UHGV virus genome: UHGV-0213490
Length of the DNA stretch: 25,438 nucleotides
Direction: 5' to 3' (one strand)
DNA from: a virus
Below are positions 1 to 18,246 of the stretch, one piece after another (positions within the stretch are counted from its first letter, which is position 1; the number at the start of each line of letters is the position of its first letter). The notes under the pieces were generated by a model. That model was not told the origin of the DNA, did no database searches, and saw only the letters and a list, made by a program, of their open reading frames with translations. The translations under genes were made by a program, and so were the position numbers.

Positions 1-1020
1 CTACTTACTGACCACAAGCGGCAAATCCAGTGTTGGGGTGATTTTGGTTTTACGATCGTAAATCAACACCTGATTTTCTGTTTTGTGTCCACTGAAAATT
101 TGTTTGTCGCGACTGCTGCCTTCGTAATCTGAAATCCCTTTGGCTTTTATGTCATGGAAGTTGCACCCAAACGGAACGCCGGCTTTTTGCTCGGCTGCAC
201 GTTTAGCCTGATTCCACCAGTTGTTCAGCGTCTTGGCTATTACCTTCCCACCTTTGGTTGTGTTGATCACATACTCGCATGTGCCGGAAGATACATTTCG
301 GGCTAACTGGATCGCCGTACGTAATCGCGGAGACCATTCCTTGATTTGTTTTGTGCCGGTCTTGTTTTGCTCAATGTAAATCCCTTTATCCATAATATCC
401 TGCCATTTCAGCTCGAGTACATCACCGAGCCTTGCCGCACAAAGATAGGATATCTCCATTGCAATACGTAACTGTGGAATTGCTTCTGCATATATTGCAG
501 CATACTGTTCATCGGTGATGTAAACAGTACGGGCTTTAAGTGTGAATTTTCTGACTCCTTTGCATGGATTATTTTTCACATACCCACGCTCATATCCCCA
601 TCCGTATACACGGCTCAGACTTGCCAGTTCATGGTTTGCCTGGGTCTTGCTCTCAAGTCCTCGCTTATCCATGAAAATTCTTACCTGTTCAATTTTTACA
701 TTATCAGCAAGCACTTTTCCGAATACTGCCAACAATGCCCTTTGATGTTGCCGATAATCTTTTTGGGTTCGGGGGGCCAGTTCTGTAAATGTAGGGGAGT
801 CCATAAACATGTGCCATAATTTAGCTACTGTCATTATGTTGTGGAGTTTTGCTTTTTCCAGCTCATAATTTTGCCAGACTTTAGCTACGCTGGTTTCCCG
901 CACTCTTCCGAGCCCTATAGTTCTTGTGCTTCCTTCGGGTTTCCATACGTAACTGTAACCATTCGATCTAACACGCGGTGGTAGAGCATTATCTTTTTTG
1001 TTTTTTCTTGGTCTTCCCAT
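1..1020 (-). CDS. int: Phage tyrosine integrase (lambda Int family)
   Basis: 339-aa ORF at the prophage end; C-terminal HKTENQVLIYDRK resembles the lambda Int catalytic Tyr region; overlaps the xis-like ORF upstream as in int-xis modules. Confidence 0.9.
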   Translation of the reverse strand: MGRPRKNKKDNALPPRVRSNGYSYVWKPEGSTRTIGLGRVRETSVAKVWQNYELEKAKLHNIMTVAKLWHMFMDSPTFTELAPRTQKDYRQHQRALLAVFGKVLADNVKIEQVRIFMDKRGLESKTQANHELASLSRVYGWGYERGYVKNNPCKGVRKFTLKARTVYITDEQYAAIYAEAIPQLRIAMEISYLCAARLGDVLELKWQDIMDKGIYIEQNKTGTKQIKEWSPRLRTAIQLARNVSSGTCEYVINTTKGGKVIAKTLNNWWNQAKRAAEQKAGVPFGCNFHDIKAKGISDYEGSSRDKQIFSGHKTENQVLIYDRKTKITPTLDLPLVVSK

Positions 1021-1240
1021 TGTTCAGCGCCTCAAAATCGGGTTCAGCGGAAACCAGTTCAGGTGCTTTTGGCATCGTAGTCAGTCTGTGTGGAATATCC
1101 CTGCGAAGAACTATTGGTTCGTTTTTAGGACCGATTACAAATGGGATACCGTGCAGCCTTAACTGGTGTTGCTGTTTTGTGTATCGCTCGTATTTCGTGA
1201 TCTCTTGAATCTCTGCTGGCGATAGAGTTAATTCGTACAT
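989..1240 (-). CDS. Excisionase-like small DNA-binding protein
   Basis: 83-aa ORF immediately upstream of int and overlapping it by 32 nt; basic C-terminus; call rests on position, not recognised homology. Confidence 0.5.
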   Translation of the reverse strand: MYELTLSPAEIQEITKYERYTKQQHQLRLHGIPFVIGPKNEPIVLRRDIPHRLTTMPKAPELVSAEPDFEALNNGKTKKKQKR

Positions 1241-1306
1241 ATGGTCACGTGCCTTACAGCATGACCGCCGCCAATATAATTCGGGGACGGCGATCAGGGT
1301 TGAACA

Positions 1307-3565
1307 TTAAAAATCAACCGGATTCGGGATCAGTTTTTGCCAGATTGCTGAAACGTATTTTGCCTGGTGACGGGCGTCATCCAGTGCATTATGGCGCTCA
1401 CCTTCGAATGGGATAGCAGTTCTGGCATCGAAGTCTATGGCTTTCCCCAGCTCAACGATTGTGCGTACATCGCGATCGTTGTAGTAGCGCCACGGGCAGG
1501 GGATACCCTGTCGTTCGTATGAACGACGTAAAATCACGTTGTCGAAGTTGGCTCCATTCCCCCAGACCTGGACAAAAAATTCACCGGAGTTTTCGTCGAT
1601 AAATTCCCGCAATTGCAGTAGTGCATCATCTAACGGAATTTCATCGGTCAGAAGGGCAGATTGCGCCTCGCGTGATTGCTTGAGCCACCATTTTATGGTG
1701 TCACGATCAATGATTCCGCCAGTAGTTTCCAGATCGATGGTCTTGCTAAATTCCGGCCCCATATCTCCGGTTTGCGGATCGAAAAATATTGCACCTATTG
1801 AGATAATCGGGGCATCAGGATTTTTTCCCATGGTTTCGAGGTCGATCATTAGATGGTCACACGTCCTGCTGGTGGATGTGATTTTGTGATGGCTGTTCAC
1901 CTTAACTGAGTGATCTGCCGCCTCGCCAGTTTCATTATCGCTGGCGTGGTCCTGAGCGCTGCCAGCATTCTCCTTGTGTGGATGTTCAGCGCCTTCCATT
2001 TCCTCCGGATCGTTTTCCTGAACTTCAACCTGATTCTCTTCATCGAATGTTTCCTGGTATGTTGCGTCGCCCATCACCGCGCCACAATCAGGGCAGTTGC
2101 CGCAACCGCTCTGACCGCAGGCGGTGCAGACTTTTTCCGGTTCCTGTTGCGCTACTGGTTCAGGCTGGCTGATATTGACTGCCTGCATAATTTTGTTTAC
2201 TTCGTCAGCGGTAACTTTTACCTGATTAACCGGATCTATCTGTGCCTGAGTATCCAGCGATTGCGTGTCCTGGCGATGTTCAGTTGTATCCGGTTCCATT
2301 GTTTCAGCCGTTGCCTGTTCATCTGCCATTGCGTCAGACGGTTGTGATTTTTCCTCATTATTTTTTTCTTCTTCTGTTTCGCGTTCAGCAGCCAGTTCGC
2401 GGTTAACTTCTTCCAGGATATCTTTTTCCGGTGTATGTCGTGCAGCAGTGAGAGTTTCCTCGGTGGGATGCTCGTGATCAGTCTCCGTTAAGTGGGCGTT
2501 GATATACTCCTGAAGGCGTCCCGGGTAGAGATAAAGTTCAGGGTGAGCACTTCGGATAAGTGCAAAAATAGCTGCACGGGAATAATCCCGAATACCAGTG
2601 ATTGCGCGAAGTGCTGCGGACCATTCTTTGAACGGACTTTCTTTCTTCCGGACGACTTCTTTTGCGCGACGATAAACGCTGCCCGGAATTTCATAAATAT
2701 TAAAATCCATCGGAAGTGTGGCCGCTGCAATCTCCACATCCAGCGTATCGAAGGTGTGTACTAAATTCGGATTGCGATCGGTTTTGTTCCCTCCACCGGC
2801 ATTAGCACCGGAAGCCGTGCGGGTGATACGAGAAACACGATTTCCTTTCATCCACTCGTTTGTCAGCAGACCGCGATCGGTGTAGTCAGCGTTCAGGTAT
2901 GCTTCGATGAAAGAAGTCATCACCCACAGTTCTGAATTTACGGGGGCGGGAAAAACACTGCCAGTATCCCGAACCAGTTTGTGGAGATCGCGAATTTCCA
3001 GTGGATCGAGCAGACTGGTTTTATGCGAAATAGCGAGGGCAGTAACAGTCGGCAGTTCTTCAGCCCGTGCAATGTGTAATGCCTGGAGTTCGTCGCGTGA
3101 AACGTGCGTTACCGGTTTTTCGCTGCCGCGTTGAGCAAGCCAGCGAATGGGTAGTTCCTGACCGGAAACCGGCAGGAGCATGTTCTCCTCAATCTCAGTC
3201 ATGTCTTCGCCGTTGACGTTGGTATTGTCAGTGCTGACTGGTTTGTCCTGAACAGAGGGCGAGGGCGCGATAAGTACCATTGTGATACCATCTTCCCCGC
3301 CTTTTTCGTAACGGTTGCAGAATTCGGTATCAAACACGCCTTCCGGAGGAAGGTCATTCACAACGGGTAAATGGACGCGAACAGGTTTTTTAAAATCCTC
3401 TTCGTCAAATCCGACATCGTCCATTGCGACAACACCGCGTGATATTGCAACCGATAATTTTTTTGCTGTGCGCCAGTAAAAACCGCCTTTAATCCCAAGG
3501 CGTTTTCTGACTTTGTCATTTTTGGCTTCGTAATATAGTGCAATTTCTTCTTTATCAGCGCTCAT
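1307..3565 (-). CDS. Large phage protein with C-terminal DnaQ-like (DEDDh) 3'-5' exonuclease domain
   Basis: 752-aa ORF; C-terminus has Exo I (MIDLETMG), Exo II (WGNGANFD) and Exo III ([13 protein letters not shown]) motifs; internal Cys cluster [16 protein letters not shown]; acidic linker. Confidence 0.8.
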
Positions 3566-3642
3566 TGATAAACCTCATAACCATTTTTAGGGTGAACAAG
3601 TCCCTGCCATTGCAGGCATATAAAAATGAAACCGGATATTAA

Positions 3643-3900
3643 TTACGGTGCTGTTTTAAGTCCTGCCGGGACTTCGTTATTATCCATGCGAATAACTTTA
3701 TCGACCGGATAACAGTTACCGGGAATTTTCTGTTCCGCTGCGGCAGCCATGCATTCTTTCATTGAGCTGTATACGCCAGTAACCGTGTCAACCGGTTCGC
3801 CGGAAACAAGAAAAACCGTCAGAACAAGTGCAAATGTGGTATTCATTGCCAGTATCCTTTTTGCATCAGACGTAAACGGGCCAGCATTGAAACAATGCAT
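3643..3900 (-). CDS. Small secreted/membrane-anchored hypothetical protein (start may be the internal Met at 3846)
   Basis: ORF with signal-peptide-like stretch MNTTFALVLTVFLVSG; part of the leftward early operon. Confidence 0.45.
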   Translation of the reverse strand: MHCFNAGPFTSDAKRILAMNTTFALVLTVFLVSGEPVDTVTGVYSSMKECMAAAAEQKIPGNCYPVDKVIRMDNNEVPAGLKTAP

Positions 3901-4190
3901 ATTTGATTTAATAACTCCCGTTCGTGTTTTCTCTTATTAATGGCATCTTCAGTAAATGCAGGGTTACTGATACTGACACCAATTTCAAAACAACCTTCAG
4001 ACGTATTAACGTTTGGTAATAACGTTTCCATTATCGCGTCCTCAACAATGAATTTTGTGATACGGTGCCTGGTGCCTCCAGGTGACGTTAACCAGTTAAC
4101 AATTAACGCCGGATACAGGGAAACCGACCCATGAAACAAATACGGAGTATCGATCACTTTTTTAACTGTTCCGCGTGCGCTTAGCCGCAT
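3843..4190 (-). CDS. Hypothetical early protein
   Basis: 115-aa ORF in the leftward operon; overlaps the neighbouring ORF so the true start is uncertain. Confidence 0.35.
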   Translation of the reverse strand: MRLSARGTVKKVIDTPYLFHGSVSLYPALIVNWLTSPGGTRHRITKFIVEDAIMETLLPNVNTSEGCFEIGVSISNPAFTEDAINKRKHERELLNQICIVSMLARLRLMQKGYWQ

Positions 4191-4422
4191 TCACCGCATC
4201 ACAAAATTCACTTTAAAAAGGGCGGACATCAGCCAGCAATGAAACTGATGCCGCCAAAGGTGCCAATCAACATGAAGTGTTGTAGCGGGGTTGTCACTTA
4301 AGCGTATGGTCAACCTGACAACCCGGTGCACTAATGGGGTAAGGATAACCCCGCCATACTTACCGCCGTACGCTTTCGCGTTATGCCCTGACTTTTCAGG
4401 GATATATCCTTTCAGTAAACTG

Positions 4423-4629
4423 TCAGTGCCGGATTTTCTTCAGTAGCTCTCCCGAAAGTTGAGTAGTTTTAATTGTTGTTTTGAAATAATCACTGCTTTC
4501 ACATTTGAGTGATTTCATGGCAATCCAAATGCGGGCCTCTGTGCCTGCATTGGGCTCCAGTTCATGTAAGCGTTTTGCATCTTCCAGAAGCAAGGCAATA
4601 ACGTGTTTAAGTTCTGTCTCTTCCATCAT
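4423..4629 (-). CDS. Hypothetical early protein
   Basis: 68-aa ORF overlapping the upstream gene by 23 nt (coupled). Confidence 0.4.
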   Translation of the reverse strand: MMEETELKHVIALLLEDAKRLHELEPNAGTEARIWIAMKSLKCESSDYFKTTIKTTQLSGELLKKIRH

Positions 4630-4867
4630 TAATCTCGTTGGCTTGATATTGACGCAGGTGTGCAGCCACTTTGGCTACGTTCAATGATGCTGCCTCTGTA
4701 AGACCGGCAATTTCCTTATCCAGTTCTGACAGGTTTTTGACCTGCAGTTCTCTGGAGTCACAGGCCCATTTCAGATCCTGTACCGCCTTAACTTTCTTGA
4801 TCATCCATTCGTAAATTTCATCATCGGTATAACCTGGCGCGATGATGACGGGTTCTGGTTTCTGCAT
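4607..4867 (-). CDS. Hypothetical early protein (first gene of leftward operon)
   Basis: 86-aa ORF about 190 bp downstream of the OL-like operator cluster. Confidence 0.5.
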   Translation of the reverse strand: MQKPEPVIIAPGYTDDEIYEWMIKKVKAVQDLKWACDSRELQVKNLSELDKEIAGLTEAASLNVAKVAAHLRQYQANEINDGRDRT

Positions 4868-5054
4868 ATTGATTCCTCGCAGTACTGTTTCCCCTTAACG
4901 CCGGGGTGGCGGAACAAAAACCTGCTGCATAGTTAAAGTTGAACCCTGCCGTCATGTTCTTACGCCTCGGGCTGGCTACTTAACCCCTGACCACTGCCTG
5001 GTAACTCGAAGTATTGCCCTGCGTTCTGTGGGGCGGGGTGGGTTGGCATGGAAA

Positions 5055-5121
5055 AACTATAGGTAATGCCTAATTATTTGTCAATAGGCTATGCCTAATA
5101 ATTTAGATGCAACCTAATAAG
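5055..5121. promoter_or_regulatory. OL-like operator cluster with putative leftward promoter
   Basis: aTAGGTaatGCCTAAt (5059-5074) and aTAGGCtatGCCTAAt (5084-5099) share half-sites with the OR palindromes; a third half-site CCTAAT lies near 5115. Confidence 0.55.
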
Positions 5122-5192
5122 TGATGGTATGTGGGAGATGTAGTAGGAGTTAACTAACGGGATCTAGGAGTTTCCCGTCGGACCATATAAGT

Positions 5193-5669
5193 TTAAGTTC
5201 CTGTCTTGGTGATGTTCTGGCTTTTCCGTTTTGATTCTTGATTTTTCAAATAGTTACCTACCTTCATTTCCATTGCGGCAATGTAGGCGCGAACGTCATG
5301 ATCAACCCAACTAGGCTCCGTAGCATTTCCAGATAAGAGGAAAGCTACAATTGCTCTTTTTTCATCAGAGGCGGCTTGATAAAGGCTGTTTATGTCTAAA
5401 AGTTCACTTTTTGTATTTGAAGTGGATGGGGTTGGTATGGGGTATTCGTTAAGCCCCCAATGCTCTGGACCAACCACATCAGAAAAGAAACGCCATAGTT
5501 CTGGAAGTTTATCTTTACTTATCGAACCTTTCTTAATCCAGTCATGGATTGATGGTGGTTGGACTTTGAAATGACGTGCGATCTCCGCCTTTGATTTGAC
5601 GGCTCCTGATGCAATTTTTTTGTTAATGGCCTGCTCTATCGCTCGGCCCAAGTCTTTACCACTAAGCAT
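5193..5669 (-). CDS. racR: Prophage repressor, RacR-like (HTH, no S24 peptidase domain)
   Basis: 158-aa ORF; N-terminal HTH (KSKAEIARHFKVQPPSIHDWIKKG); no LexA-like Ala-Gly/Ser-Lys autocleavage region; divergent from the cro-like gene; matches E. coli Rac RacR from memory. Confidence 0.75.
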   Translation of the reverse strand: MLSGKDLGRAIEQAINKKIASGAVKSKAEIARHFKVQPPSIHDWIKKGSISKDKLPELWRFFSDVVGPEHWGLNEYPIPTPSTSNTKSELLDINSLYQAASDEKRAIVAFLLSGNATEPSWVDHDVRAYIAAMEMKVGNYLKNQESKRKSQNITKTGT

Positions 5670-5694
5670 TGCTTAATAGTCTCCTATGCGCATC

Positions 5695-5766
5695 GCGTTA
5701 GGCAATCCCTATGTTTAGTGCATTAGGCATAGCCTATTGACAATTGCGTTAGGCGAAGCCTAATAT
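5695..5766. promoter_or_regulatory. OR-like tripartite operator with pR/pRM-type divergent promoters
   Basis: Three palindromes about 25 bp apart: TTAGGCaatCCCTAT (5698-5712), TTAGGCataGCCTAT (5723-5737), TTAGGCgaaGCCTAA (5749-5763); TTGACA (5737-5742) and TAATAT (5761-5766) with 18-bp spacer upstream of the cro-like ATG. Confidence 0.65.
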
Positions 5767-5793
5767 CATTGTGTGTTTTTTGGAGTTCATTCG

Positions 5794-6117
5794 ATGAAAA
5801 AAGAGAACTATTCATTCAAACGGGCTTGTGTTGTTGTCGGTGGGCAATCAGCAATGGCTAGGCTTTTAGGTGTATCTCCTCCAAGCGTAAATCAATGGAT
5901 CAAAGGTGTACGTCAGTTGCCTGCTGAGAGATGTCCTGCGATTGAACGAGCAACAAAAGGTGGTGTCCTGTGTGAAGAACTTCGTCCTGATGTTGATTGG
6001 TCATACTTACGACGCCTGTCATGTTATTCGCAGAATATGTCGATGAAGCAACCAAATGACGAAAACGATCATACCCGAAGCATCAAGAGGCAAATGATTC
6101 ATGAAAATCAAACATGA
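5794..6117 (+). CDS. ydaS: Cro/YdaS-like HTH regulator
   Basis: ATG 5794 (MKKENYSFKRACVVVGGQSAMARLLGVSPPSVNQWIKG) with HTH; first rightward gene after the operators; resembles Rac YdaS from memory. Confidence 0.75.
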   Translation: MKKENYSFKRACVVVGGQSAMARLLGVSPPSVNQWIKGVRQLPAERCPAIERATKGGVLCEELRPDVDWSYLRRLSCYSQNMSMKQPNDENDHTRSIKRQMIHENQT

Positions 6118-6526
6118 GCACATCCGCATGGCGATGAATGCCTGGGCGCGTCCGGATGGTGAAAAAGTTCCGGTAGCCGAGATAACCAGGGTTTATTTCG
6201 AGCTGGGCATGACGTTTCCTGAGCTGTACGACGACAGCCATCCGGAAGCCCTGGCCCGCAATACTCAGAAAATTTTCCGCTGGGTAGAGAAAGACACCCC
6301 TGATGCTGTTGAAAAAATTCAGGCGTTGTTACCAGCGATCGAAAAAGCAATGCCGCCTCTGCTGGTGGCCCGAATGCGCAGCCACAGTTCAGCCTTTTTT
6401 CGGGAACTGGTGGAGACGCGGGAACGACTGGTGAGAGACGCTGATGATTTTGTCGCAGTGGCGATCGCTGGTTTCAATCAGATGAATCGTGGTGGCCCGG
6501 CGGGAAATGCCGTGGTCGTTCATTAA
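6101..6526 (+). CDS. ydaT: YdaT-like protein (cII-position regulator or toxin-like)
   Basis: 141-aa ORF overlapping the end of the cro-like gene; RBS AAGAGG 9 nt upstream; position and size match Rac YdaT. Confidence 0.65.
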   Translation: MKIKHEHIRMAMNAWARPDGEKVPVAEITRVYFELGMTFPELYDDSHPEALARNTQKIFRWVEKDTPDAVEKIQALLPAIEKAMPPLLVARMRSHSSAFFRELVETRERLVRDADDFVAVAIAGFNQMNRGGPAGNAVVVH

Positions 6527-6547
6527 GAATAGTACAGGAGAAAATGG

Positions 6548-6841
6548 ATGACATTTACAAATGAAGGTCGAATTGTTTTTGATTTTGAGTACGAAACACC
6601 ATTGCAGAGATTGATTATGTTAAGAATTTTCTGCTCTGGGAGTGGTGATGGTGGGCGCGAAAAGCGTTTTGAAGATCAGGAATTCCGACGTTTTTGTTGT
6701 TGTACGTTTGATGAGTTTGAGCAGGCTATCGCGAAACTTATCGAGATGGGAGTGATTCATAAAATAAGTTATGGATATCAATACGGAAAGCCATCAAGCG
6801 GTTACATCATCAAAGATCCGGGTGAAATTATTCAGTTATGA
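6548..6841 (+). CDS. Hypothetical protein, translationally coupled to the replication initiator
   Basis: 97-aa ORF; its stop overlaps the ATG of the next gene (ATGA at 6838-6841). Confidence 0.5.
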   Translation: MTFTNEGRIVFDFEYETPLQRLIMLRIFCSGSGDGGREKRFEDQEFRRFCCCTFDEFEQAIAKLIEMGVIHKISYGYQYGKPSSGYIIKDPGEIIQL

Positions 6842-7803
6842 GTCTTCTTTTTGCTGAACGTCCGCTGGTTATTAACACGCATCTGGCGATGAAAATTGGC
6901 CTGAACGAAGCCATCGTGTTGCAGCAGCTGCATTACTGGTTGAGAGATACCGGTTCCGGCATGGAATGTGATGGTGTTCGCTGGATTTATAACACAACAG
7001 AACAATGGCTGGAACAGTTCCCGTTCTGGTCAGAGTCAACGTTAAAACGCGCATTTGCAAGTCTGAAAACGCTGGGGCTTTTGCGTTGCGAAAAGCTCAA
7101 CAAATCAAAGCGTGATATGACTAATTTTTACACGATTAATTACGAGAGCGAGCTTTTAGATGGTGGCAAAGTGAGCGAATTCATCAGGTCAAAATGCGCT
7201 GCTCCATCAGGTCAAAATGACACGATGGAAGAGGTCAAAATGAAACGCTCCATTGGTTCAAAACGACCCAATGTCATCGGGTCAAAATGGCCCGATGATC
7301 TTACAGAGAATACAACAGAGATTACTACAGAGAATAAAAATACTTCTCGTCCGGAAGCTTCGCAACCGGACCCGCAGACGGCTGAACAGGATTTTTTAAC
7401 CCGACACTCTGACGCGGTTGTGTTCAGTGCGAAAAAACGCCAGTGGGGCAGCCAGGAAGATTTAGCGTGTGCGCAGTGGATCTGGGGACGAATCGTGAGT
7501 CTTTACGAACAGGCTGCCAGCGATGATGGTGAGATCACGCGACCGAAAGAACCCAACTGGACTGCATGGGCCAATGACGTGCGCACAATGCGGATGCTTG
7601 ATGGCAGAACTCACAGGCAAATTTGCGAAATGTTTGGTCGGGTACAGCGGGATCCCTTTTGGGTAAAAAATATCATGAGTCCGTCAAAGCTTCGTGAAAA
7701 ATGGGACGAACTGGTCATCCGCCTGGGGCGTTCGCCTGTACAGCGTTGTGTGAATCACATTTCTGAACCGGACACCGAAATTCCGCCTGGGTTCAGGGGG
7801 TGA
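6838..7803 (+). CDS. Replication initiation protein (lambda O-like / DnaD-like replisome organiser)
   Basis: 321-aa ORF in the O position; N-terminal winged-helix-like region; contains an internal array of GGTCAAAATG iterons followed by an A/T-rich repeat, as in lambda ori inside O. Confidence 0.7.
   Translation: MSLLFAERPLVINTHLAMKIGLNEAIVLQQLHYWLRDTGSGMECDGVRWIYNTTEQWLEQFPFWSESTLKRAFASLKTLGLLRCEKLNKSKRDMTNFYTINYESELLDGGKVSEFIRSKCAAPSGQNDTMEEVKMKRSIGSKRPNVIGSKWPDDLTENTTEITTENKNTSRPEASQPDPQTAEQDFLTRHSDAVVFSAKKRQWGSQEDLACAQWIWGRIVSLYEQAASDDGEITRPKEPNWTAWANDVRTMRMLDGRTHRQICEMFGRVQRDPFWVKNIMSPSKLREKWDELVIRLGRSPVQRCVNHISEPDTEIPPGFRG
7181..7340. repeat. Candidate origin of replication: iterons plus AT-rich tract inside the O-like gene
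   Basis: Five copies of (C/G)AGGTCAAAATG-like iterons between 7183 and 7290, then TACAGAGAATA direct repeats and an A-rich tract at 7300-7340. Confidence 0.55.
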
Positions 7804-7843
7804 GTGTTTATTTCAGGTCATGAGATAATTTTCAGGAGGAGTT

Positions 7844-8263
7844 GTGGCAAAAGTTTTTACACAGGAAGAGCGAGAAAAAATTAAAGGGCAGGTTGTTGAA
7901 CTTGTACGCCAGAGTGGGCGCGAGACGTTACGGCAACTGGAAGCCAAGACAGGTGCGACAAGATATCTGATGAGCGTTCTCGCAAGAGAGCTGGTTGCCA
8001 GTGGCGATGTATACAACTCTGGTTACGGGTTATTCCCGTCTGAACAGGCTCGTAAGGACTGGCAAAACGCCCGCAAAAAACTCTCGAGAGCAAAGCTGAA
8101 GAAAACATCTGTAGTTGATCCGGACCTTATCTGGTCGTTACCAGACGGAGAAATACGCCGCTACGACAGGCGTCAGAACATAATCTGTCGCGAGTGCCGG
8201 AAAAGCAAGGTTATGCAGCGAGTTTTGATGTTTTACAGGGGTAATAACGGAGCAACGATATGA
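7844..8263 (+). CDS. Hypothetical phage protein
   Basis: 139-aa ORF with GTG start preceded by AGGAGG; basic C-terminal half with CxxC. Confidence 0.5.
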   Translation: MAKVFTQEEREKIKGQVVELVRQSGRETLRQLEAKTGATRYLMSVLARELVASGDVYNSGYGLFPSEQARKDWQNARKKLSRAKLKKTSVVDPDLIWSLPDGEIRRYDRRQNIICRECRKSKVMQRVLMFYRGNNGATI

Positions 8264-8559
8264 GGGTTTATATCGCAGGGCCGATGACCGGGTATAAAAA
8301 TTTCAACCGTGAGGCGTTCCACAAGGCGGAAGAGAAGCTGAAACAGAAAGGGTGCACGGTGTTGAATCCGGCAGTACTTCCTGGTGGGCTGACACAGGCG
8401 CAGTACATGGATATTTGTACTGCGATGCTCCGCTGTGTGGATACGATTTACATGCTGAAAGGCTGGCATCGGTCGGCAGGCGCTAAGGCAGAACTGGCGC
8501 TGGCGGCAAAATTGGGGCATGAGGTTGTATTTCAGGAGGCAACCAGTGAGCAAGATTGA
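8260..8559 (+). CDS. DUF4406-like (nucleoside 2-deoxyribosyltransferase-like) phage protein
   Basis: 99-aa ORF MRVYIAGPMTGYKNFNREAFHKAEEKL; ATGA overlap with the upstream gene. Confidence 0.55.
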   Translation: MRVYIAGPMTGYKNFNREAFHKAEEKLKQKGCTVLNPAVLPGGLTQAQYMDICTAMLRCVDTIYMLKGWHRSAGAKAELALAAKLGHEVVFQEATSEQD

Positions 8560-9148
8560 CTATCAGGCACTGCGTGAGGCAATACAAAACTATCAGTCGA
8601 TGCTGGCGTGGTATGAGGCTATCCCGGATAGCCCAAACGCAGAGGTTGATTGTGATGAAGCTTTGGCTGCGTTTAAGCGTCAAATTCGTCACAGGGAAGT
8701 GGATATTATCGCCGATCTGCTGGATGAATGGGAATCCCAAAACAAGCGTATTGCAGAACTGGAGAAAAGCGAAGAGCAACCCATTAACGAGCGTGACCAT
8801 GCTGAGTCTGCTTTAGATGATATGTACTTTGCAGCAACCGGTAACAGGCCGGAGTGGAGCAACTGGTTCGGCTTTTCAGATGCTGTCGATGCCGTGGTTG
8901 ACAGAATTGCTGATTTAGAAGCTAAACAATGCATTGAAGAGATGAGTAAACAAAGTTGCGAAGCTCGGGAGCGTGATTTGTTTGAATCATGGGTAATGCA
9001 TTCAATTTGTATTTCCAAATCGACGCTTGAAGGATTGCGCACCGAAACTGGATATCGTAACGCGACCTTATCAGGAACAGACTTCAACCGAATGTGGGAA
9101 CAATGGAAATCTATCCGCGCCGCTGGCATTCGCATCAAAGGAGAGTGA
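8546..9148 (+). CDS. Ea22-like family protein
   Basis: GTG start after CAGGAGG; VSKIDYQALREAIQNYQSMLAWYEA resembles Ea22/ead-like prophage proteins from memory. Confidence 0.55.
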   Translation: MSKIDYQALREAIQNYQSMLAWYEAIPDSPNAEVDCDEALAAFKRQIRHREVDIIADLLDEWESQNKRIAELEKSEEQPINERDHAESALDDMYFAATGNRPEWSNWFGFSDAVDAVVDRIADLEAKQCIEEMSKQSCEARERDLFESWVMHSICISKSTLEGLRTETGYRNATLSGTDFNRMWEQWKSIRAAGIRIKGE

Positions 9149-9149
9149 C

Positions 9150-9506
9150 GTGGAAATAAAACCAGAAGATGAGTTAAGTAATATTGTTTTATTTCCGGTA
9201 AAAGAGGATGACCCACGTAATCAGGTTAATTTTCTTTATGAGCCATCGGAAAGACCATACTGCCATCACGCTTCTGTCCGGGTTGACGAAAAAGAGCGTC
9301 AGGTCCGCTGTAAAATCTGCGGTGCAGTTGTGGAGCCGTTTGACTGGATGCTCTCTGTGGCGAAAAGAGAAACCAGACTGGCAGATGATGTAAGGCTATT
9401 GCGCCAGGAGGAACAGGAAAGACGGAAAAATATAGAAAAGTTAATTCAGATTGAGCGTAACGCGAAAGCGCGGATACGCAGGGCGACGAAATCCAGAACT
9501 GAATAA
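9150..9506 (+). CDS. Hypothetical Zn-ribbon protein
   Basis: GTG start 2 nt after the upstream stop with AAGGAGAG RBS; CHH...CKICG motif; basic C-terminus. Confidence 0.5.
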   Translation: MEIKPEDELSNIVLFPVKEDDPRNQVNFLYEPSERPYCHHASVRVDEKERQVRCKICGAVVEPFDWMLSVAKRETRLADDVRLLRQEEQERRKNIEKLIQIERNAKARIRRATKSRTE

Positions 9507-9556
9507 ATAAATTTAGCACTGTAAATAAAATCAAATCCTTAACTGGAGGTATATCT

Positions 9557-9769
9557 ATGTTAAATACACAGAAAACCATTAATGCGGAAAAATATAACGA
9601 GTGGGTGAGGAAATTTTCTGAGCAGATTTTTAAAATTACTGGCGACGAGAATGCGGCAAAAAATGAATTAGAGCCGTGGACACCTGAAGGAGTCGAACCA
9701 AATTATTGCTGGTGGGATGTTGATCCAGTTGATGCTGCAAATGAAGCTATGAGTTATCACAACGATTAA
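9557..9769 (+). CDS. Hypothetical phage protein
   Basis: 70-aa ORF with GGAGG RBS. Confidence 0.5.
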   Translation: MLNTQKTINAEKYNEWVRKFSEQIFKITGDENAAKNELEPWTPEGVEPNYCWWDVDPVDAANEAMSYHND

Positions 9770-9801
9770 TGTCAGGAGGCCGCCCGAAAGGGCGGTAAGA
9801 A

Positions 9802-10020
9802 ATGACTACATTATTCAGAAAAGAATATCCGCGAAAAAGTAGAGCGACAGAATTTTTGTTTCTCATTCTGTTTATCGTGTTGATGATACCGATATCCCCG
9901 CTAATTTTTGTCTGGATAATCGTGAAAATAATTGAACCTATTATTGAGTTATATACCGATGTGATATGGGGACCATTCAACACACTACACAATAAAATTA
10001 ATCCGTATAAGGAAAGCTGA
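9802..10020 (+). CDS. Small hydrophobic membrane protein
   Basis: 72-aa ORF, AT-rich, two predicted TM segments; SD and ATG separated by a perfect CCGCCC-GAAA-GGGCGG hairpin. Confidence 0.45.
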   Translation: MTTLFRKEYPRKSRATEFLFLILFIVLMIPISPLIFVWIIVKIIEPIIELYTDVIWGPFNTLHNKINPYKES

Positions 10021-10021
10021 T

Positions 10022-10387
10022 ATGTCACTGACGAAAAAACAACGCGCAGAACTGCGCATGAAGTTCGGTGGTCGCTGCGCTTATTGCGGCTGCGAACTTG
10101 GCGAAAAGTGGCATGCAGACCATGTAAAACCGGTCATCCGTTTTGATGGAAATATGCTTCACCAGGAACGTGACGATATATCCAACATGGTTCCGGCATG
10201 CCACCCATGCAATCTGCACAAGCATTGCAGTAGTCTGGAAGATTATCGGCGAATTATCAGTGATGGTCGTCGTGAATTCCTTGCGTCCGGGAAAGGCAAA
10301 GCGCTGGTTCGTATGGGATTGGTTGAAATGAAATCTGACCCAGTTGTGTTCTGGTTTGAAAAATATCAAGAAGGGGCTACGGCATGA
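10022..10387 (+). CDS. HNH endonuclease
   Basis: 121-aa ORF with Zn-finger/HNH signature CAYCGC...HADHVKP...N...CHPCNLHKH. Confidence 0.8.
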   Translation: MSLTKKQRAELRMKFGGRCAYCGCELGEKWHADHVKPVIRFDGNMLHQERDDISNMVPACHPCNLHKHCSSLEDYRRIISDGRREFLASGKGKALVRMGLVEMKSDPVVFWFEKYQEGATA

Positions 10388-11199
10388 CCACTTTTACCAA
10401 TAGCAAACTAACAGACGAATACGTTTCAAATGCAACGTTGATTCGGCTCATTCTGTGGGCTGACCAGCACAATAGCCATTATGTTGTAGCGGCTCTGCGC
10501 GAGCTACAGGAGCGCCGCAAGGCTGATAGTGTGCCTGTAGAAATCAACGACGACATGGCTTACGCATTTCACCATGCGCTTTCTGACTCATCGCTTGGCT
10601 CTGATGAAATCGAAGAAATTAAAACCGGGTTGCGTGCTGCCTTTGCCAATGTCACCGTCCAGCCGGTGCTGATAGTGCCAGATGAAATCGAGCCAGACGA
10701 TAGCAATACGTTTGATTATGTTGATGGCTGGAACGCCTGCCGCGCCGCCATGCTTCAGAGTAACCAACCTGTAAGCCAAACTTACAACTTGCCAGAATTA
10801 ATCGAGGGCATGGAAGTTTCCATTGATGTAAGCACTTGTGATGCTGATTTAGGTAATCGCTATTTCGGCACCGTCACCGAGGCGTTAGAACTTGATACTG
10901 CCAAGAATGGCTACATCCTCCTGATTCAGGACGCAGAGCCAAACTTCGATGTAAATGGCAACTCTCCGGTAACTCCGGATGGTTGGATAAGCTGTAGTGA
11001 GCGAATGCCGGAAAAGGGCCAGAACGTGCTTATTTCGGTGAATTTCGATAGCTCTCTGGTTGAACCGCTAATATGCTCCGCACGCTATACCGGAAGCACC
11101 TTTCGGCGCGGAGATGCAACGATTAAGCCGGGTAATGGTATTGAGCAAGCAACTCACTGGATGCCGCTACCGGAACCACCGCAGGAGGTGAATCAATGA
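10384..11199 (+). CDS. DUF551 domain-containing phage protein
   Basis: 271-aa ORF coupled to the HNH gene (ATGA overlap); C-terminal WISCSERMPEKGQNVLISV is typical of DUF551. Confidence 0.65.
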   Translation: MTTFTNSKLTDEYVSNATLIRLILWADQHNSHYVVAALRELQERRKADSVPVEINDDMAYAFHHALSDSSLGSDEIEEIKTGLRAAFANVTVQPVLIVPDEIEPDDSNTFDYVDGWNACRAAMLQSNQPVSQTYNLPELIEGMEVSIDVSTCDADLGNRYFGTVTEALELDTAKNGYILLIQDAEPNFDVNGNSPVTPDGWISCSERMPEKGQNVLISVNFDSSLVEPLICSARYTGSTFRRGDATIKPGNGIEQATHWMPLPEPPQEVNQ

Positions 11200-11279
11200 C
11201 CTGGCCTGAGGCATTTACCACGGTAGGAATTGCGATGGCAGTGGCGATGGTGGTGTATTCGATTTGCCGTTGGGGATAA
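11196..11279 (+). CDS. 27-codon hydrophobic micro-ORF
   Basis: ATG overlaps the DUF551 stop; strong AGGAGG 7 nt upstream; encodes MTWPEAFTTVGIAMAVAMVVYSICRWG (single TM helix); followed by a terminator. Confidence 0.45.
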   Translation: MTWPEAFTTVGIAMAVAMVVYSICRWG

Positions 11280-11289
11280 CAAACAAAAA

Positions 11290-11316
11290 CCCCGGATTGA
11301 TGGTCCGGGGTTTTTG
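11290..11316 (+). terminator. Rho-independent terminator
   Basis: CCCCGGA-ttgatgg-TCCGGGG followed by TTTTT. Confidence 0.75.
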
Positions 11317-11653
11317 AAGGAAACAAAACAGAAACAGCAATTGCCGTTACCTGTTGTTATCATGGCAAGTAAACGTATCTCAGGCGAGCGCATTGCGCCG
11401 TTCTGACGCAGATAAACTAGCCTGGATAGATGGTGCTGGCAATAAAAAATAGCGTTTTCTTATCGGTGTCGGTAAGATTGCTGCGGGTGCTTGAGGCTGT
11501 CTGCCTCGGGCATGCCACTGTAAGGCAGACAGAGAAAAGCCCCAGTTAACATTACGCGTCCTGCAAGACGCTTAACATTAATCTGAGGCCCAATCTATGT
11601 CTCACAAATGTAGGTTAGCCTCTTACGTGCCGAAAGGCAAGGAGAAGCAGGCT

Positions 11654-11809
11654 ATGAAGCAGCAAAAGGCGATGTTAATCGCCCTGATCGTCATCTGTTT
11701 AACCGTCATAGTGACGGCACTGGTAACGAGGAAAGACCTCTGCGAGGTACGAATCCGAACCGGCCAGACGGAGGTTGCTGTCTTCGTGGACTACGAATCT
11801 GAGAAGTAA
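11654..11809 (+). CDS. hok: Hok/Gef-family type I toxin
   Basis: MKQQKAMLIALIVICLTVIVTALVTRKDLCEVRIRTGQTEVAVFVDYESEK: single TM plus conserved CE..R.G..EVA motif; AGGAGA RBS; in-frame upstream ATG at 11597 gives a mok-like extension. Confidence 0.85.
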   Translation: MKQQKAMLIALIVICLTVIVTALVTRKDLCEVRIRTGQTEVAVFVDYESEK

Positions 11810-11881
11810 GAGTGACTAGGCGGGAGAGTAATCTCCCGCCACCTCTGATGTGTCAGGCATCCTCAACGCACCCGCACTTAA

Positions 11882-11902
11882 CCCGCTTCGGCGGGTTTTT
11901 TC
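11882..11902 (+). terminator. Rho-independent terminator of the hok transcript
   Basis: CCCGC-ttcg-GCGGG plus TTTTTT; preceded by a GGCGGGAGAGTAATCTCCCGCC hairpin (11819-11840). Confidence 0.75.
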
Positions 11903-12021
11903 ACGTACTGTGGTTGTGAATACGATTGGTATTAGGCTATGCTAACAACATTAGCCTGACTAATTTTGTATTGACTTGATTTTTTGTTAAAGAACAGGAC
12001 GGAGAAGTAAGGGTACACCCA

Positions 12022-12201
12022 ATGAGCTACGCACTAAAAAAACACCCGCGATTGACTATTCCCCCTCGCGATAAAAGCGTTGTGGCAGCTCCGCGCCCGG
12101 CTATTGATGAAAATTGCACACATCGTGAGCAGGTGAAAAATGCTTTCGATTTCGGTTTTTCTCGTTACGAGAAGGCAATGGAAGAACTTTCAAAAGTGTA
12201 A
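12022..12201 (+). CDS. Candidate antitoxin/partner of the Fic/Doc toxin
   Basis: 59-aa ORF (MSYALKKHPRLTIPPRDKSVV...EKAMEELSKV) ending 10-19 nt before the Doc-like gene; below the ORF-track length cutoff; not recognisably Phd/YefM. Confidence 0.5.
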   Translation: MSYALKKHPRLTIPPRDKSVVAAPRPAIDENCTHREQVKNAFDFGFSRYEKAMEELSKV

Positions 12202-12210
12202 TAATGGGTA

Positions 12211-12705
12211 TTGTGCTCTATGGCTGAGATTGTTGAAGGAGTGCACTATCTTTCGGTTGATGATCTTACTGAAATCAATCGCCTTTTAATTGAGCTTCAA
12301 ACACCAGATGAACCTGTAGGTGTGCTGAGTGTTGATAATTTAAGTTCTTCTCAGGCCCGTCCCAGCATGGTTCGATGGTATGAACAGATCAATGACATGT
12401 TTGTACTGGCATCGGTATTGATTGAAAGTCTGATTCAGAATCATCCGTTTGCTAATGCGAACAAACGAACAGCTATGATGGCTGGTTACGTCTTCTTGTT
12501 GTTGAATGGCTATGAGTTAACAGCACCAGGCGATGAAATCGTGGAAATGGCAGAGGGACTGGCCTGCAAAACCTATACTCGAGAAGATCTCGAGAACTGG
12601 TTGTGTTATTGGTCTCGTGCGTATGACAGCCGGGAATTATGTAAAACAGGCGCAACTATTGTTTTGTATGAAACTATCAAGCTTAAAATAGAACAGCAAA
12701 ACTAA
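12211..12705 (+). CDS. doc: Fic/Doc-family toxin (death-on-curing-like)
   Basis: Doc-type Fic motif HPFANANKRTA; alternative ATG at 12220. Confidence 0.8.
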   Translation: MCSMAEIVEGVHYLSVDDLTEINRLLIELQTPDEPVGVLSVDNLSSSQARPSMVRWYEQINDMFVLASVLIESLIQNHPFANANKRTAMMAGYVFLLLNGYELTAPGDEIVEMAEGLACKTYTREDLENWLCYWSRAYDSRELCKTGATIVLYETIKLKIEQQN

Positions 12706-12720
12706 AGGTGCTTCCAATGA

Positions 12721-12745
12721 AAACCCGCTTCGGCGGGTTTTTTGT
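12721..12745 (+). terminator. Rho-independent terminator (second copy of the hok terminator sequence)
   Basis: AACCCGCTTCGGCGGGTTTTTT, identical over 22 nt to 11880-11901. Confidence 0.75.
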
Positions 12746-12818
12746 TTTACGTATTCTGGTTTACAATCCACAGGCCAGCCTGAACAACTGGCACCTGCTG
12801 CGCCAGCAGAGAAAACCG

Positions 12819-13091
12819 ATGGCGCACAATACCAAACATCACAATTCTGATACCGACCTTGCCAGCAGGCACGGGCGGTGTTCTCATGCATTCAAATATG
12901 ACTGGTACCAGCATGACCCCTGCACTGAAGAACAGGCCGAATGGCTGATTCAGAACTACCGCAGGCGTGGGTACGAGTTTCAGAAAGATCTCAGCTTCGA
13001 TCGTCGTCACTGGATAATCTCCGTCAGGCTCCCTTATTCCGAACGTCCGCCGCGTCCGTCCCGCACATTCCAGCAACGCATCTGGAGGTAA
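12819..13091 (+). CDS. Hypothetical protein
   Basis: 90-codon ORF from ATG 12819 ending 1 nt before the DUF968 gene start; Arg/His-rich. Confidence 0.4.
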   Translation: MAHNTKHHNSDTDLASRHGRCSHAFKYDWYQHDPCTEEQAEWLIQNYRRRGYEFQKDLSFDRRHWIISVRLPYSERPPRPSRTFQQRIWR

Positions 13092-13092
13092 C

Positions 13093-14142
13093 GTGCGGGT
13101 ATTGCTTCGACCTGTTCTGGTACCGGAACTCGGGCTGGTGGTCCTTAAGCCGGGTCGTGAATCCATGCGGGTATTTCATAATCCCCGGGTGCTGGTGGAG
13201 CCGGAACCGAAAAGCATGCGCGGTCTGCCGTCCGGCATTGTCCCTGTCGTTCGCCAGCCGCTGGCGGAGGATAAATCATTACAGCCATTTTTCAGCGATG
13301 AGCGGGTGATTCGTGCTGCCGGCGGCGCTGGTGCACTGTCTGACTGGCTCCTGCGTCATGTTAAATCCTGCCAGTGGCCTCATGGTGACTATCACCACAG
13401 CGAAACCGTCATACATCGTTACGGTACCGGCGCGATGGTGTTGTGCTGGCACTGCGACAACCAGCTGCGTGGCCAGACCTCCGAATCACTCGGGCAGCTT
13501 GCTCAACAAAATCTGGCAACCTGGATAATTGACGCCATCCGTCACGCAATAAATGGCGCGCAGGAGCGGGAGTTATCGCTGGCTGAATTGTACTGCTGGG
13601 CTGCTTTAAATAATGTGGTGGATGCCATAACCGAAAATATGGCGCGTCGAATCCTGAAACGTTCGGGTGAAAAAATCCTTTCCGTATACCGCGAAAGCGA
13701 CATCATACCGGGAGTGCAGACAGCCACCAGCATACTGAAGCAGCGCACAAAAAATATTGCGCTACCGCCTCACGTCCACCAGCAACAGAACTCACCGCAG
13801 GAAAAGGCGGTGGTAAGCATTGCCGTTGATCCGGATTCTCCGGAATCTTTCATGAAGCGCCCTAAACGTCGCCGCTGGGTTAACGAGAAATACACGCGCT
13901 GGGTAAAGATGCAGCCGTGTGCGTGTTGTGGTAAGCCAGCCGACGATCCCCATCACCTGATTGGTCATGGTCAGGGCGGAATGGGAACAAAATCCCACGA
14001 TATTTTCACGCTACCGCTGTGTCGGGAGCATCGCAACGAACTTCATGCGGATCCGCTGGCGTTCGAAGAAAAGCATGGTTCTCAGGTTGATTTAATTTTT
14101 CGTTTTCTTGATCACGCCTTTGCAACCGGTGTGCTTGGGTAA
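13093..14142 (+). CDS. DUF968 domain protein (YdfU-like, nin region)
   Basis: 349-aa ORF with GTG start after GGAGGTAA; C-terminal Cys/His cluster CACCGKPADDPHHLIGHGQGGMGTKSHD...CREHRNELH. Confidence 0.65.
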   Translation: MRVLLRPVLVPELGLVVLKPGRESMRVFHNPRVLVEPEPKSMRGLPSGIVPVVRQPLAEDKSLQPFFSDERVIRAAGGAGALSDWLLRHVKSCQWPHGDYHHSETVIHRYGTGAMVLCWHCDNQLRGQTSESLGQLAQQNLATWIIDAIRHAINGAQERELSLAELYCWAALNNVVDAITENMARRILKRSGEKILSVYRESDIIPGVQTATSILKQRTKNIALPPHVHQQQNSPQEKAVVSIAVDPDSPESFMKRPKRRRWVNEKYTRWVKMQPCACCGKPADDPHHLIGHGQGGMGTKSHDIFTLPLCREHRNELHADPLAFEEKHGSQVDLIFRFLDHAFATGVLG

Positions 14143-14154
14143 AAGGGGGTATTG

Positions 14155-14526
14155 ATGTGTATAGAGTTTGTTTTGCCTTACCCGCCGACGGTGAATACTT
14201 ACTGGCGACGTCGTGGCAGCACATATTTTGTATCAAAAGCCGGTGAGCGTTATCGCCGTGATGTGGCACTTATTGTTCGCCAGCAGCAACTGAAATTAAA
14301 CCTGTCCGGAAGGCTGGCGATAACGGTTATTGCCGAGCCGCCGGATAAGCGTCGTCGTGATCTGGACAATATCCTGAAAGCACCACTGGATGCGCTGACG
14401 CATGCGGGACTGCTTATCGACGACGAGCAGTTTGATGAAATTAATATTGTGCGCGGTCAGCTCGTTCCTGGTGGTCGGCTGGGCGTGAAGATTTGCGAAA
14501 TTAGAGGTGATAGTAATGGGGCGTGA
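14155..14526 (+). CDS. rusA: Holliday-junction resolvase RusA
   Basis: LPYPPTVNTYW...DKRRRDLDNILKAPLDALTHAGLLIDDEQ matches the RusA family signature; AAGGGGG RBS. Confidence 0.85.
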   Translation: MCIEFVLPYPPTVNTYWRRRGSTYFVSKAGERYRRDVALIVRQQQLKLNLSGRLAITVIAEPPDKRRRDLDNILKAPLDALTHAGLLIDDEQFDEINIVRGQLVPGGRLGVKICEIRGDSNGA

Positions 14527-14866: not shown

Positions 14867-14887
14867 CTATTCTTAACTGTCTTCTAG

Positions 14888-15772: not shown

Positions 15773-15777
15773 GGTTA

Positions 15778-16299: not shown

Positions 16300-16606
16300 G
16301 ATATCCTTTGTACTGTTTATGCATACAGCACTTTACATCATGTACTCCAAAGTATCTATCTTGTGAAGAATCTTACACTAAATACTACAGAAAAAGTTAA
16401 CGCGTACGCAAAAAGTATTATATCGTGTTAAGAGTGGTTACTTCGCCACACAGCTTAAACCCGCTCGACAGCGAGTTTTTTAGTGTCCGAAAAGCGGACC
16501 CAGCACGGTAAACGCGCTGGTGGTTGCGAATACTGGTCTTTAAGCTTGCTGGCTTTTTGGACAAGAGTTATTGGTATGTCACGTTAACCAGAAAAGGGAA
16601 AAAGAC

Positions 16607-18170: not shown

Positions 18171-18246
<76 letters not shown>

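Follow-up and report, generated by a model that had tools for sequence, protein, structure and literature searches.

In phage lambda the replication origin (ori) is annotated inside the initiator gene, O, towards its middle, and this gene is placed after cro and cII in the rightward operon. Four near-palindromic iterons of ~19 bp, of the type (C)ATCCCTCAAAACGAGGGAT, are spaced there at 20, 24 and 23 bp, i.e. about two helical turns, and an A-rich, readily melted tract lies on the promoter-distal side of the array. Here we describe a locus of similar layout in a 25,438-nucleotide (nt) stretch of the virus genome UHGV-0213490 (the whole stretch is hereafter called the window), which, to judge from its genes, is a lambdoid prophage. 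In the window, five or six near-palindromic iterons of 23 bp, spaced at 23, 23, 23 and 24 bp and thus likewise about two helical turns apart, are followed on the promoter-distal side by an A-rich, readily melted tract, within an initiator gene (6838-7803) that also comes after cro-like and cII-like genes in a rightward operon. We consider it very likely that the prophage uses as its vegetative origin of replication the region 7159/7182-7348, where the gene codes for a linker predicted to be disordered.

Two further groups of described systems bear on the C-terminal end of the initiator. Its last 20 residues match those of Escherichia coli DnaT, which is encoded in the dnaT-dnaC operon; each of the two proteins is thought to pass a stretch of single-stranded DNA (ssDNA) to DnaB-DnaC. 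DnaT, however, functions in fork restart, whereas the window initiator would act in sequence-specific origin initiation, and DnaT has the PF17948 domain and an N-terminal domain of its own, both of which are absent from the window initiator. The same C-terminal peptide, at the same early-right operon position, is present in YdaU-YdaV of the Rac prophage, in the O plus DnaC-like pair of Gifsy-2 and in gp15-gp16 of Shiga toxin (Stx) phage 75/02, with a DUF977/LygF gene downstream in Rac and 75/02, as in the window. Directly after each of YdaU, Gifsy-2 O and 75/02 gp15 comes a loader with 49-51% identity to E. coli DnaC along its full length, whereas the window phage, Tritos, SPN1S and mEp460 encode none. 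In DopC/DopE, an O-like N-terminal helix-turn-helix is fused to a 'DnaT C-terminal motif' (identified by HHpred versus 2ru8), and a parallel with dnaT-dnaC was drawn (Brezellec et al. 2017, PMC5509034), such that the idea developed below for the tail is not wholly new. According to its authors, DopC is a domesticated chromosomal gene without iterons that has a P-like partner and is no longer an initiator (PMC5509034), whereas the window iterons are intact and the partner gene is absent. In the literature searched we found no prior account of the tail on functional phage initiators; the DopC note was the only mention of the tail (PMC5509034), and a truncation experiment the only work on the function of DnaT residues 155-179 (PMC4132743).

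The window element is of a known kind and varies from it in two respects: the DNA-binding domain is not of the lambda type and has iterons of its own, and the module lacks a loader gene, its initiator ending in the DnaT peptide. The origin itself is ordinary, and its value is mainly for annotation; once recognised within the initiator gene, it delimits a predicted minimal replicon for prophages of a type that is common in E. coli, E. albertii, Citrobacter, Salmonella and Klebsiella. The wider interest here lies in the tail, as a short transferable peptide common to DnaT and many phage initiators.

Iterons and A-rich tract within the initiator gene

The features of the gene are as follows.

6838-7803, + strand: initiator gene (open reading frame (ORF) of 321 residues), with array and A-rich tract wholly inside
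6838-7158, + strand: coding part of the N-terminal domain (residues 1-107), a predicted iteron-binding winged helix (alignments, AlphaFold2 (AF2), Foldseek)
7159-7181, no strand: possible sixth iteron, degenerate (GGCAAAGTGA; GATGGTGGCAAAGTGAGCGAATT), one 23-nt period ahead of iteron 1 and in phase with it
7182-7204, no strand: iteron 1 (CATCAGGTCAAAATGCGCTGCTC), from the repeat search
7205-7227, no strand: iteron 2 (CATCAGGTCAAAATGACACGATG), from the repeat search
7228-7250, no strand: iteron 3 (GAAGAGGTCAAAATGAAACGCTC), from the repeat search
7251-7273, no strand: iteron 4 (CATTGGTTCAAAACGACCCAATG), with a degenerate core, from the repeat search
7275-7297, no strand: iteron 5 (CATCGGGTCAAAATGGCCCGATG), the best palindrome (inverted repeat with 11-nt arms, 91% complementary)
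7303-7348, no strand: predicted DNA unwinding element, comprising three 12-nt repeats (7303-7338) and an A-rich run (repeats, G+C content (GC), duplex stability)
7375-7740, + strand: coding part of the C-terminal helical domain (residues 180-301), homologous to the C-terminal part of lambda O (BLASTP, AF2)
7741-7803, + strand: DnaT-like tail (QRCVNHISEPDTEIPPGFRG) and stop codon, a candidate docking peptide for host DnaC or DnaB-DnaC (match to DnaT)

A repeat search identified the 23-nt unit five times within 7182-7297, at the start-to-start spacings given above. Exact copies of its core, GGTCAAAATG, start at 7187, 7210, 7233 and 7280, with none elsewhere in the window; the core of iteron 4, at 7256, is degenerate (GTTCAAAACG). 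Clustering of this degree, with four copies of a 10-mer (one mismatch at most) within 120 nt, occurred in none of 300 dinucleotide shuffles of the initiator gene, the shuffle maximum being three copies. Of the 23 positions in the iteron consensus, CATCAGGTCAAAATGACCCGATG, 18 are self-complementary, and its outline is CATC-N3-TCAAAAYG-N-GATG. It is close to that of lambda (CATCCCTCAAAACGAGGGAT), the repeats having in common the core TCAAAA(C/T)G and the outline CATC...TCAAAA(C/T)G...GAT. The degenerate unit at 7159-7181 may be a sixth iteron: it was also picked up in repeat families D2 and D6, a Tandem Repeats Finder array of period 23 (7167-7220) overlaps it, and its counterpart in the relatives L002 and L003 is better preserved (GGTCAAAGTG).

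The array corresponds to residues 108-153 of the initiator, between its DNA-binding and C-terminal domains. The cores of iterons 1-5 start at codon phases 2, 1, 3, 2 and 2, respectively, and one core is translated in five ways (RSKC, GQND, EVKM, GSKR and GSKW). A period of 23 nt does not correspond to a whole number of codons, and every codon phase is represented among the cores; the repetition is thus one of DNA and not of peptide.

The TACAGAGAATA repeats to the right of the array comprise three tandem 12-nt units, ACAGAGAATACA, ACAGAGATTACT and ACAGAGAATAAA, at 7303-7338, followed by AAAATAC. GC is 28% over 7303-7345, compared with 47% window-wide, and purines make up 67% of the top strand there. 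Within 6500-8300, no 40-mer is less stable than 7309-7348 (GC 0.28), which is in the 99th percentile across the whole window. The 12-nt repeats are in frame and encode TENT TEIT TENK, a sequence that is invariant in the protein alignment of the relatives. By way of the protein alignment with lambda O, the tract is homologous to the A-rich tract of lambda ori. Another AT-rich stretch (7103-7142, GC 0.25) is present to the left of the array. In phage Tritos (L004 1621-1963), unrelated GTCACG-based iterons at 1621-1927 are followed by three in-frame 12-nt repeats of ACAGATAAAGAT (1928-1963), which resemble the three ACAGAGAATACA-type units of the window.

Matches to the DnaA box (TTWTNCACA) number three in the window, which is the chance level, and none is within the ori. 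An Rfam search of 6500-8300 gave no RNA family, and a promoter and terminator scan inside the initiator gene gave nothing above the level in shuffled sequences. The overall anatomy is that of the original prediction, which, from the letters of the sequence, had proposed five iterons at roughly 20-25 bp spacing within the coding sequence of an O-like gene, then TACAGAGAATA repeats and an A-rich tract, in the arrangement of lambda ori. The term 'O-like' is appropriate for the C-terminal half of the product, where homology to lambda O extends from the A-rich tract onward; it does not apply to the N-terminal domain.

Comparison with relatives reveals conservation at the DNA level. Variability was measured as the fraction of variant sequences per column across 53 distinct sequences with 90-97% identity to the window; the scan of viral contigs returned only close relatives (95-98% identical), which were used for variability and not for comparison of diverse lineages. 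In the rest of the gene, variability was 0.109 at third codon positions and 0.017 at first and second positions. For the iterons it was 0.023 (cores) and 0.035 (arms), and no stretch of the gene varied less than the A-rich tract, at 0.004. Disordered linkers ought to change faster than folded domains, yet this one changes more slowly, and the values imply DNA-level constraint on the ori. The same array and three 12-mers are present in Escherichia phage HannyBb, in mEp460_4F5 and in Klebsiella phage ST147-VIM1phi7.2; the lack of conservation that would have counted against the original prediction was thus not observed.

More diverse lineages were obtained from a scan of genome contigs, with one genome per species, which gave 80 loci encoding the N-terminal domain. 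These loci are from Enterobacterales, Pantoea, Xenorhabdus, Pseudomonas, Acinetobacter, Photobacterium and Psychrobacter, as well as from Bacillus, Staphylococcus, Limosilactobacillus, Clostridia and Thermomicrobiales. A crude k-mer detector found at least three repeats phased at 22-24 bp in 39 of the 77 full-length genes, always at approximately residues 108-170; the homologue arrays comprise 3-6 repeats, with the 22-24-bp period and gene position being the same. In 29 of these 39 phased-array loci, the least stable 40-mer of the entire gene starts between -10 and +60 nt from the array end. The cores are lineage-specific (GGTCAAAA, CAATTTGTC, GCAAATTGC, CATGTGATC, TGCCCTCTT, GCAAAATGC, GATCCAACG, CAAATGCAA, CGACAAATT and GAGCAATTC). 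An array whose period and position are kept while its sequence varies with the adjacent DNA-binding domain is as expected of binding sites for that domain.

Partial loss of the array has also occurred. The E. coli prophages P0018-P0023 have an in-frame deletion of 31 codons, the 93 nt of which equal 23+23+23+24, aligned to window positions 7185-7277; four units are removed and one iteron is left. By their sequence, these look like deletions arising by unequal recombination that inactivate the ori. Classical lambda ori-minus deletions were defined by lesions of this kind. As a side observation, metagenome bins labelled Bacillota, Veillonella parvula and Collinsella (L088, L090 and L150) contain initiator stretches 94-96% identical to the Escherichia prophage protein, which are most likely binning contamination.

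The initiator protein and its C-terminal tail

The initiator matches the PHROGs profile phrog_391 ('replication initiation O-like') with E 7.7e-96, residues 17-321 aligning with positions 11-298 of 298. Searched against Pfam and NCBIfam as a whole and half by half, the protein gave no family, except for a 16-bit match (cut-off 201) of the last 20 residues to the NCBIfam DnaT model. The closest proteins, from E. albertii and E. coli, are 97% identical, and the initiator of the isolated phage HannyBb is 96% identical; the window protein is full length, with all iterons intact in its gene. The family is large: one database gave 4,303 proteins at E <= 1e-5, and a second gave 12,211 representative clusters when the threshold was E <= 1e-3. 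It is labelled 'hypothetical protein' by NCBI and has no Pfam or NCBIfam model.

BLASTP aligns residues 147-294 with lambda O 135-270, in the P-binding half of that protein (34% identity, E 3e-26), and the alignment begins in the stretch encoded by the A-rich tract. Unlike the C-terminal half, the N-terminal domain has no similarity to lambda O by BLASTP; Phage_rep_O (PF04492) gave no Pfam hit there even at E <= 10, compared with E 6e-36 for lambda O and E 2e-30 for Gifsy-2 O. The initiator thus reads as a mosaic, O-like in its C-terminal half only, and, given that this half and the layout match lambda O and its ori whereas the N-terminal domains are unrelated by sequence, the locus is best described as a lambda-type ori in a mosaic initiator. 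Joints are apparent in nucleotide matches to phages, some of which are common only over the N-terminal part and iterons, whereas others, of the Tritos type, begin at ~7741 and cover only the tail and LygF.

The AF2 model of the initiator (mean predicted local distance difference test (pLDDT) score 55) has a winged helix at residues 11-85 (H-H-E-E-H-H-E-E pattern, pLDDT 61-76), a disordered stretch at residues 101-175 (pLDDT 23-31), which is that encoded by the iterons and A-rich tract, and a helical C-terminal domain at residues 180-297 (pLDDT 63-83), with the C-terminal tail predicted to be disordered. In alignments A1 and A2 the N-terminal domain shows no variation in most of its columns. 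Foldseek searches with the model gave no usable match for the C-terminal domain; for the N-terminal domain the best matches, both weak, were 4pql_B (E 9e-3, template modelling (TM) score 0.57 on the target), the N-terminal domain of a plasmid DNA-binding protein, and 5kbj_H (E 2e-2), a Rep-DNA complex, both of which we take to be staphylococcal plasmid RepA proteins. RepA_N-type initiators, whose origin is inside the rep gene, also have iterons there, between two domains. Obtained with a model of moderate confidence, the matches may at most hint at a RepA_N-type fold as in Gram-positive plasmids; the window protein has no Pfam hit, a different C-terminal domain and a phage as its replicon.

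The last 20 residues (QRCVNHISEPDTEIPPGFRG) are identical to residues 160-179 of E. coli K-12 DnaT at 14 of 20 positions, and contain the conserved extreme C-terminal peptide of DnaT, ..VN.(V/I)SEPD..IPPGFRG; lambda O, in contrast, ends in ..DLTNTDWIYGVDL. The tail stretch lies outside the DNA-binding three-helix domain of DnaT, PF17948, which ends at DnaT residue 154 and which gave no Pfam hit in the initiator (E 4e-21 for K-12 DnaT); no similarity to DnaT was found beyond the tail. Recent capture of the tail from the host dnaT gene was considered and rejected, the nucleotide identity being 42/69.

The tail is found on otherwise unrelated proteins. The Tritos initiator is unrelated to the window protein save for the final 20 residues, which are 100% identical. 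By tblastn, the tail ends replication proteins in 48 phage records; carriers include Rac YdaU, the O proteins of Gifsy-1 and Gifsy-2 (with a PF04492 N terminus), Stx phages 75/02 (gp15) and POCJ13, the SPN1S group, PAT1 and Klebsiella phages. In Salmonella phage SPN1S, gp46 (L172 1748-2563), a 'replication initiation protein' with no loader gene after it, has a complete PF17948 (E 4e-18, residues 181-250) in addition to the DnaT tail. Tritos and 75/02 gp15 have the same C-terminal domain and tail (64% identity), with the DnaC homologue being present in 75/02 only. The DnaC-like loaders that follow initiators without a DnaT-like tail are 28-36% identical to DnaC.

Within the N-terminal-domain family (L086-L165), the last ~12 residues fall into classes that track the downstream gene. 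Tails of the ..WENTL class are paired with lambda-P-like loaders, those of the ..SGFSEQ..CNW class with a distant DnaC-like loader plus DnaB, and those of the ..FRFDDET class, in the Bacillus group, with a G39P-like loader plus DnaB. This pattern suggests that short C-terminal docking peptides may be a general feature of the initiators of this family. Lambda-like ..NTDW.. tails also occur among them.

Proposed helicase recruitment without a loader gene

No P-, DnaC-, DnaB- or G39P-type gene was found by PHROGs searches of 1-18000, including directly after the initiator, and when 24 loader and helicase sequences (P-like, DnaC-like, DnaB-like and G39P-like) served as tblastn queries against the whole window, the best E was 0.2. 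The absence of a P/DnaC-type loader after the initiator, already remarked on in the original prediction, hence extends to the window as searched; unlike lambda, the window phage has no P gene. Of the two explanations then offered, i.e. an incomplete module or use of a host loader, the evidence below argues against the first, whereas the second is supported and has a candidate docking peptide in the initiator tail.

Tail-bearing initiators are usually followed by a winged-helix protein of ~130-165 residues (in L002, L091-L123 and the window, at 7844-8263). It is of the DUF977/LygF type at six loci, including the window, and has a PerC-like C terminus at 16 loci (PF06069 in L002, E 7e-8); PHROGs labels DUF977 a 'Ren-like exclusion protein'. 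We rejected the DUF977/PerC-like gene as a hidden loader, since it is absent from ST147-VIM1phi7.2 and SPN1S and stands beside DnaC homologues elsewhere.

We envisage the following sequence of events. Rightward early transcription, probably from a pR-like promoter at 5737-5766, would express the initiator, the N-terminal winged helix of which would occupy, probably in dimeric form, the near-palindromic 23-bp iterons, five or six in number. The resulting nucleoprotein complex would melt the adjoining A-rich tract with its three 12-mers (7303-7348), where the host helicase, DnaB, would be loaded. As the phage encodes no loader, recruitment would most likely proceed via the host DnaB-DnaC complex, contacted by the C-terminal 20-residue peptide of the initiator. 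The tail would, in this scheme, be an interface to a DnaC-type loader, whether of phage or host, with the window phage using the host DnaB-DnaC. In the sample analysed the tail accompanies either a close DnaC homologue or no loader, and never a P-type loader.

A broader proposal, which we regard as possible though somewhat less likely than not, is that ..VNxISEPDxxIPPGFRG is a portable module for recruiting DnaC-type loaders (DnaB6-DnaC6). Host DnaT would employ it in delivering DnaB-DnaC to sites of restart, and enterobacterial phages would have grafted it on at least five unrelated initiators, some of these phages, the window phage among them, then losing the loader gene and relying on host DnaC. 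As a corollary, dnaT-dnaC itself would descend from a phage pair of initiator and loader, like ydaU-ydaV, that became domesticated. If true, this reading of the tail would explain how some lambdoid phages replicate without a loader gene, and the tail provides an experimental handle on how the DnaT-containing preprimosome recruits DnaB-DnaC.

Several considerations weigh against this account of origin and tail. Iteron binding by the N-terminal domain is deduced from its co-location with the array and from the lineage-specific cores, and initiation of replication from 7159/7182-7348 is likewise predicted from sequence. The A-rich tract is in frame (TENT TEIT TENK), and selection on the protein could account for some of its conservation; given the AT-rich stretch at 7103-7142, melting may instead occur to the left of the array. 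Confidence in the AF2 model is low to moderate (mean pLDDT 55), and at E 9e-3 its likeness to the RepA-type fold is weak. With respect to the tail, a loader is present at 1 of 27 tail-bearing loci compared with 27 of 47 other family loci, but the raw p value of 1.5e-6 is inflated because the loci are related, and when they are collapsed to six lineages the association loses significance (p = 0.18). The proposal that a DnaT-like tail predicts the absence of a loader was consequently dropped, Rac, Gifsy-2 and 75/02 also having both the tail and a DnaC homologue. Interaction of DnaC with DnaT has not been demonstrated (PMC11087952). In preprimosome structures reported in 2026, the C-terminal domain of DnaT docks on PriA, and the authors proposed its N-terminal domain as the recruiter of DnaB/DnaC (PMC13377028). 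Removal of DnaT residues 154-179 weakened cooperative ssDNA binding (PMC4132743), such that the tail could act on DNA and not on a protein partner.

The structural work is relevant to the possibility that, although the array is an ori, the helicase arrives via the PriA primosome, with the tail docking on PriA (or PriB) and host PriA/PriB/DnaT delivering DnaB-DnaC. The cryo-electron microscopy structures place the DnaT C-terminal domain on PriA via a conserved hydrophobic surface (PMC13377028). The IPPGF motif of the tail is itself hydrophobic and conserved, and the entire DnaT C-terminal domain is present in SPN1S gp46. Nonetheless, the tail is outside the folded DnaT domain, which ends at residue 154, and PriA is near-universal in bacteria, yet the tail-bearing family loci with an identified organism are all from Enterobacterales (27/27), which is the range of DnaC/DnaT. 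In three initiator families unrelated to one another, the gene right after the tail encodes a close DnaC homologue. We therefore regard the PriA route as unlikely.

A further alternative is that the tail functions in binding or coating of ssDNA, or in oligomerisation, with the helicase being recruited by the lambda-O-like C-terminal domain or by another phage protein, e.g. the DUF977 product (7844-8263). For DnaT lacking residues 154-179, the apparent dissociation constant for dT30 approximately doubled and cooperativity was lower (PMC4132743), and at 22 of the 27 tail-bearing loci the gene after the initiator encodes a small winged-helix protein, DUF977 or PerC-like. Across families, however, the kind of tail varies with the kind of loader, which a general ssDNA role would not predict. 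A partner role for the small protein is difficult to reconcile with ST147-VIM1phi7.2, where a Dam methylase gene directly follows the initiator and no small partner is present, with SPN1S, which has neither Dam methylase nor small partner after the initiator, and with Rac and 75/02, where DUF977 coexists with a DnaC homologue of their own. We consider this explanation, too, to be improbable.

It could also be that the module is defective, the array being a relic, or that it needs a loader in trans from another prophage. No loader gene was found in the window, and the four-iteron (93-nt, 31-residue) deletion in P0018-P0023 means that decay of the ori does occur. The window gene is, however, full length, with 96% identity to that of HannyBb and all its iterons intact, and constraint on the ori region is visible. 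The loader-less gene order is also that of HannyBb, mEp460_4F5, ST147-VIM1phi7.2, Tritos, 689R5 and 606R7, which are isolated or induced phages, making an incomplete module very unlikely. Phage mEp460 is from a set in which, according to the authors, both life cycles were confirmed in the 26 focus phages (PMC9836094).

Lastly, that the repeats encode a repetitive peptide linker, or are sites for a transcription regulator, with no origin present, is hardly credible: the 12-nt repeats are in frame with invariant products, but the iteron period and the five translations of one core do not fit a peptide, the period and position of the array are kept across phyla while its sequence follows the N-terminal domain lineage, and the array adjoins the least stable duplex, as in lambda ori.

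Neighbouring genes

The assignment of the window to a lambdoid prophage draws on the following further features.

1-1020, - strand: integrase (profile searches)
1307-3565, - strand: RecE-like exonuclease (profile searches)
5737-5766, + strand: putative pR-like promoter (TTGACA-18-TAATAT) ahead of the cro/YdaS-like gene, which would transcribe through the ori
5773-6117: cro/YdaS-like gene (profile searches)
6101-6526: cII/YdaT-like gene (profile searches)
6548-6841, + strand: ORF of 97 residues between the cII/YdaT-like gene and the initiator, its stop overlapping the initiator start (ATGA)
7844-8263: DUF977/LygF, the next gene after the initiator
downstream of DUF977/LygF: DUF4406, Ead/Ea22, HNH and RusA genes (profile searches)
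11485-11659: sok RNA (Rfam RF01794, 118 bits), overlapping the MokW/Hok-like ORF
11597-11809: MokW/Hok-like ORF, which with the sok RNA forms a hok/sok-type toxin-antitoxin locus (11485-11809)
12211-12705: Doc-like toxin ORF in the nin-like region (phrog_577, E 2e-50)
14507-14866: Q-like antiterminator (profile searches)
16955-18001: DNA methyltransferase gene, with two tandem tRNA genes downstream
18171-18243 and 18250-18321, + strand: tandem tRNA genes (Rfam)
24529-24613, - strand: tRNA gene near the right end (Rfam)

The 97-residue ORF has a weak likeness to the initial ~87 residues of the 223-position 'replication initiation protein' profile phrog_4617 (E 6e-8). The 315-nt segment containing it is absent from ~98 related loci and from the phage collection, and was seen only in E. 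coli strain A8. The ORF may be a leftover of the N terminus of another initiator, remaining from module exchange.

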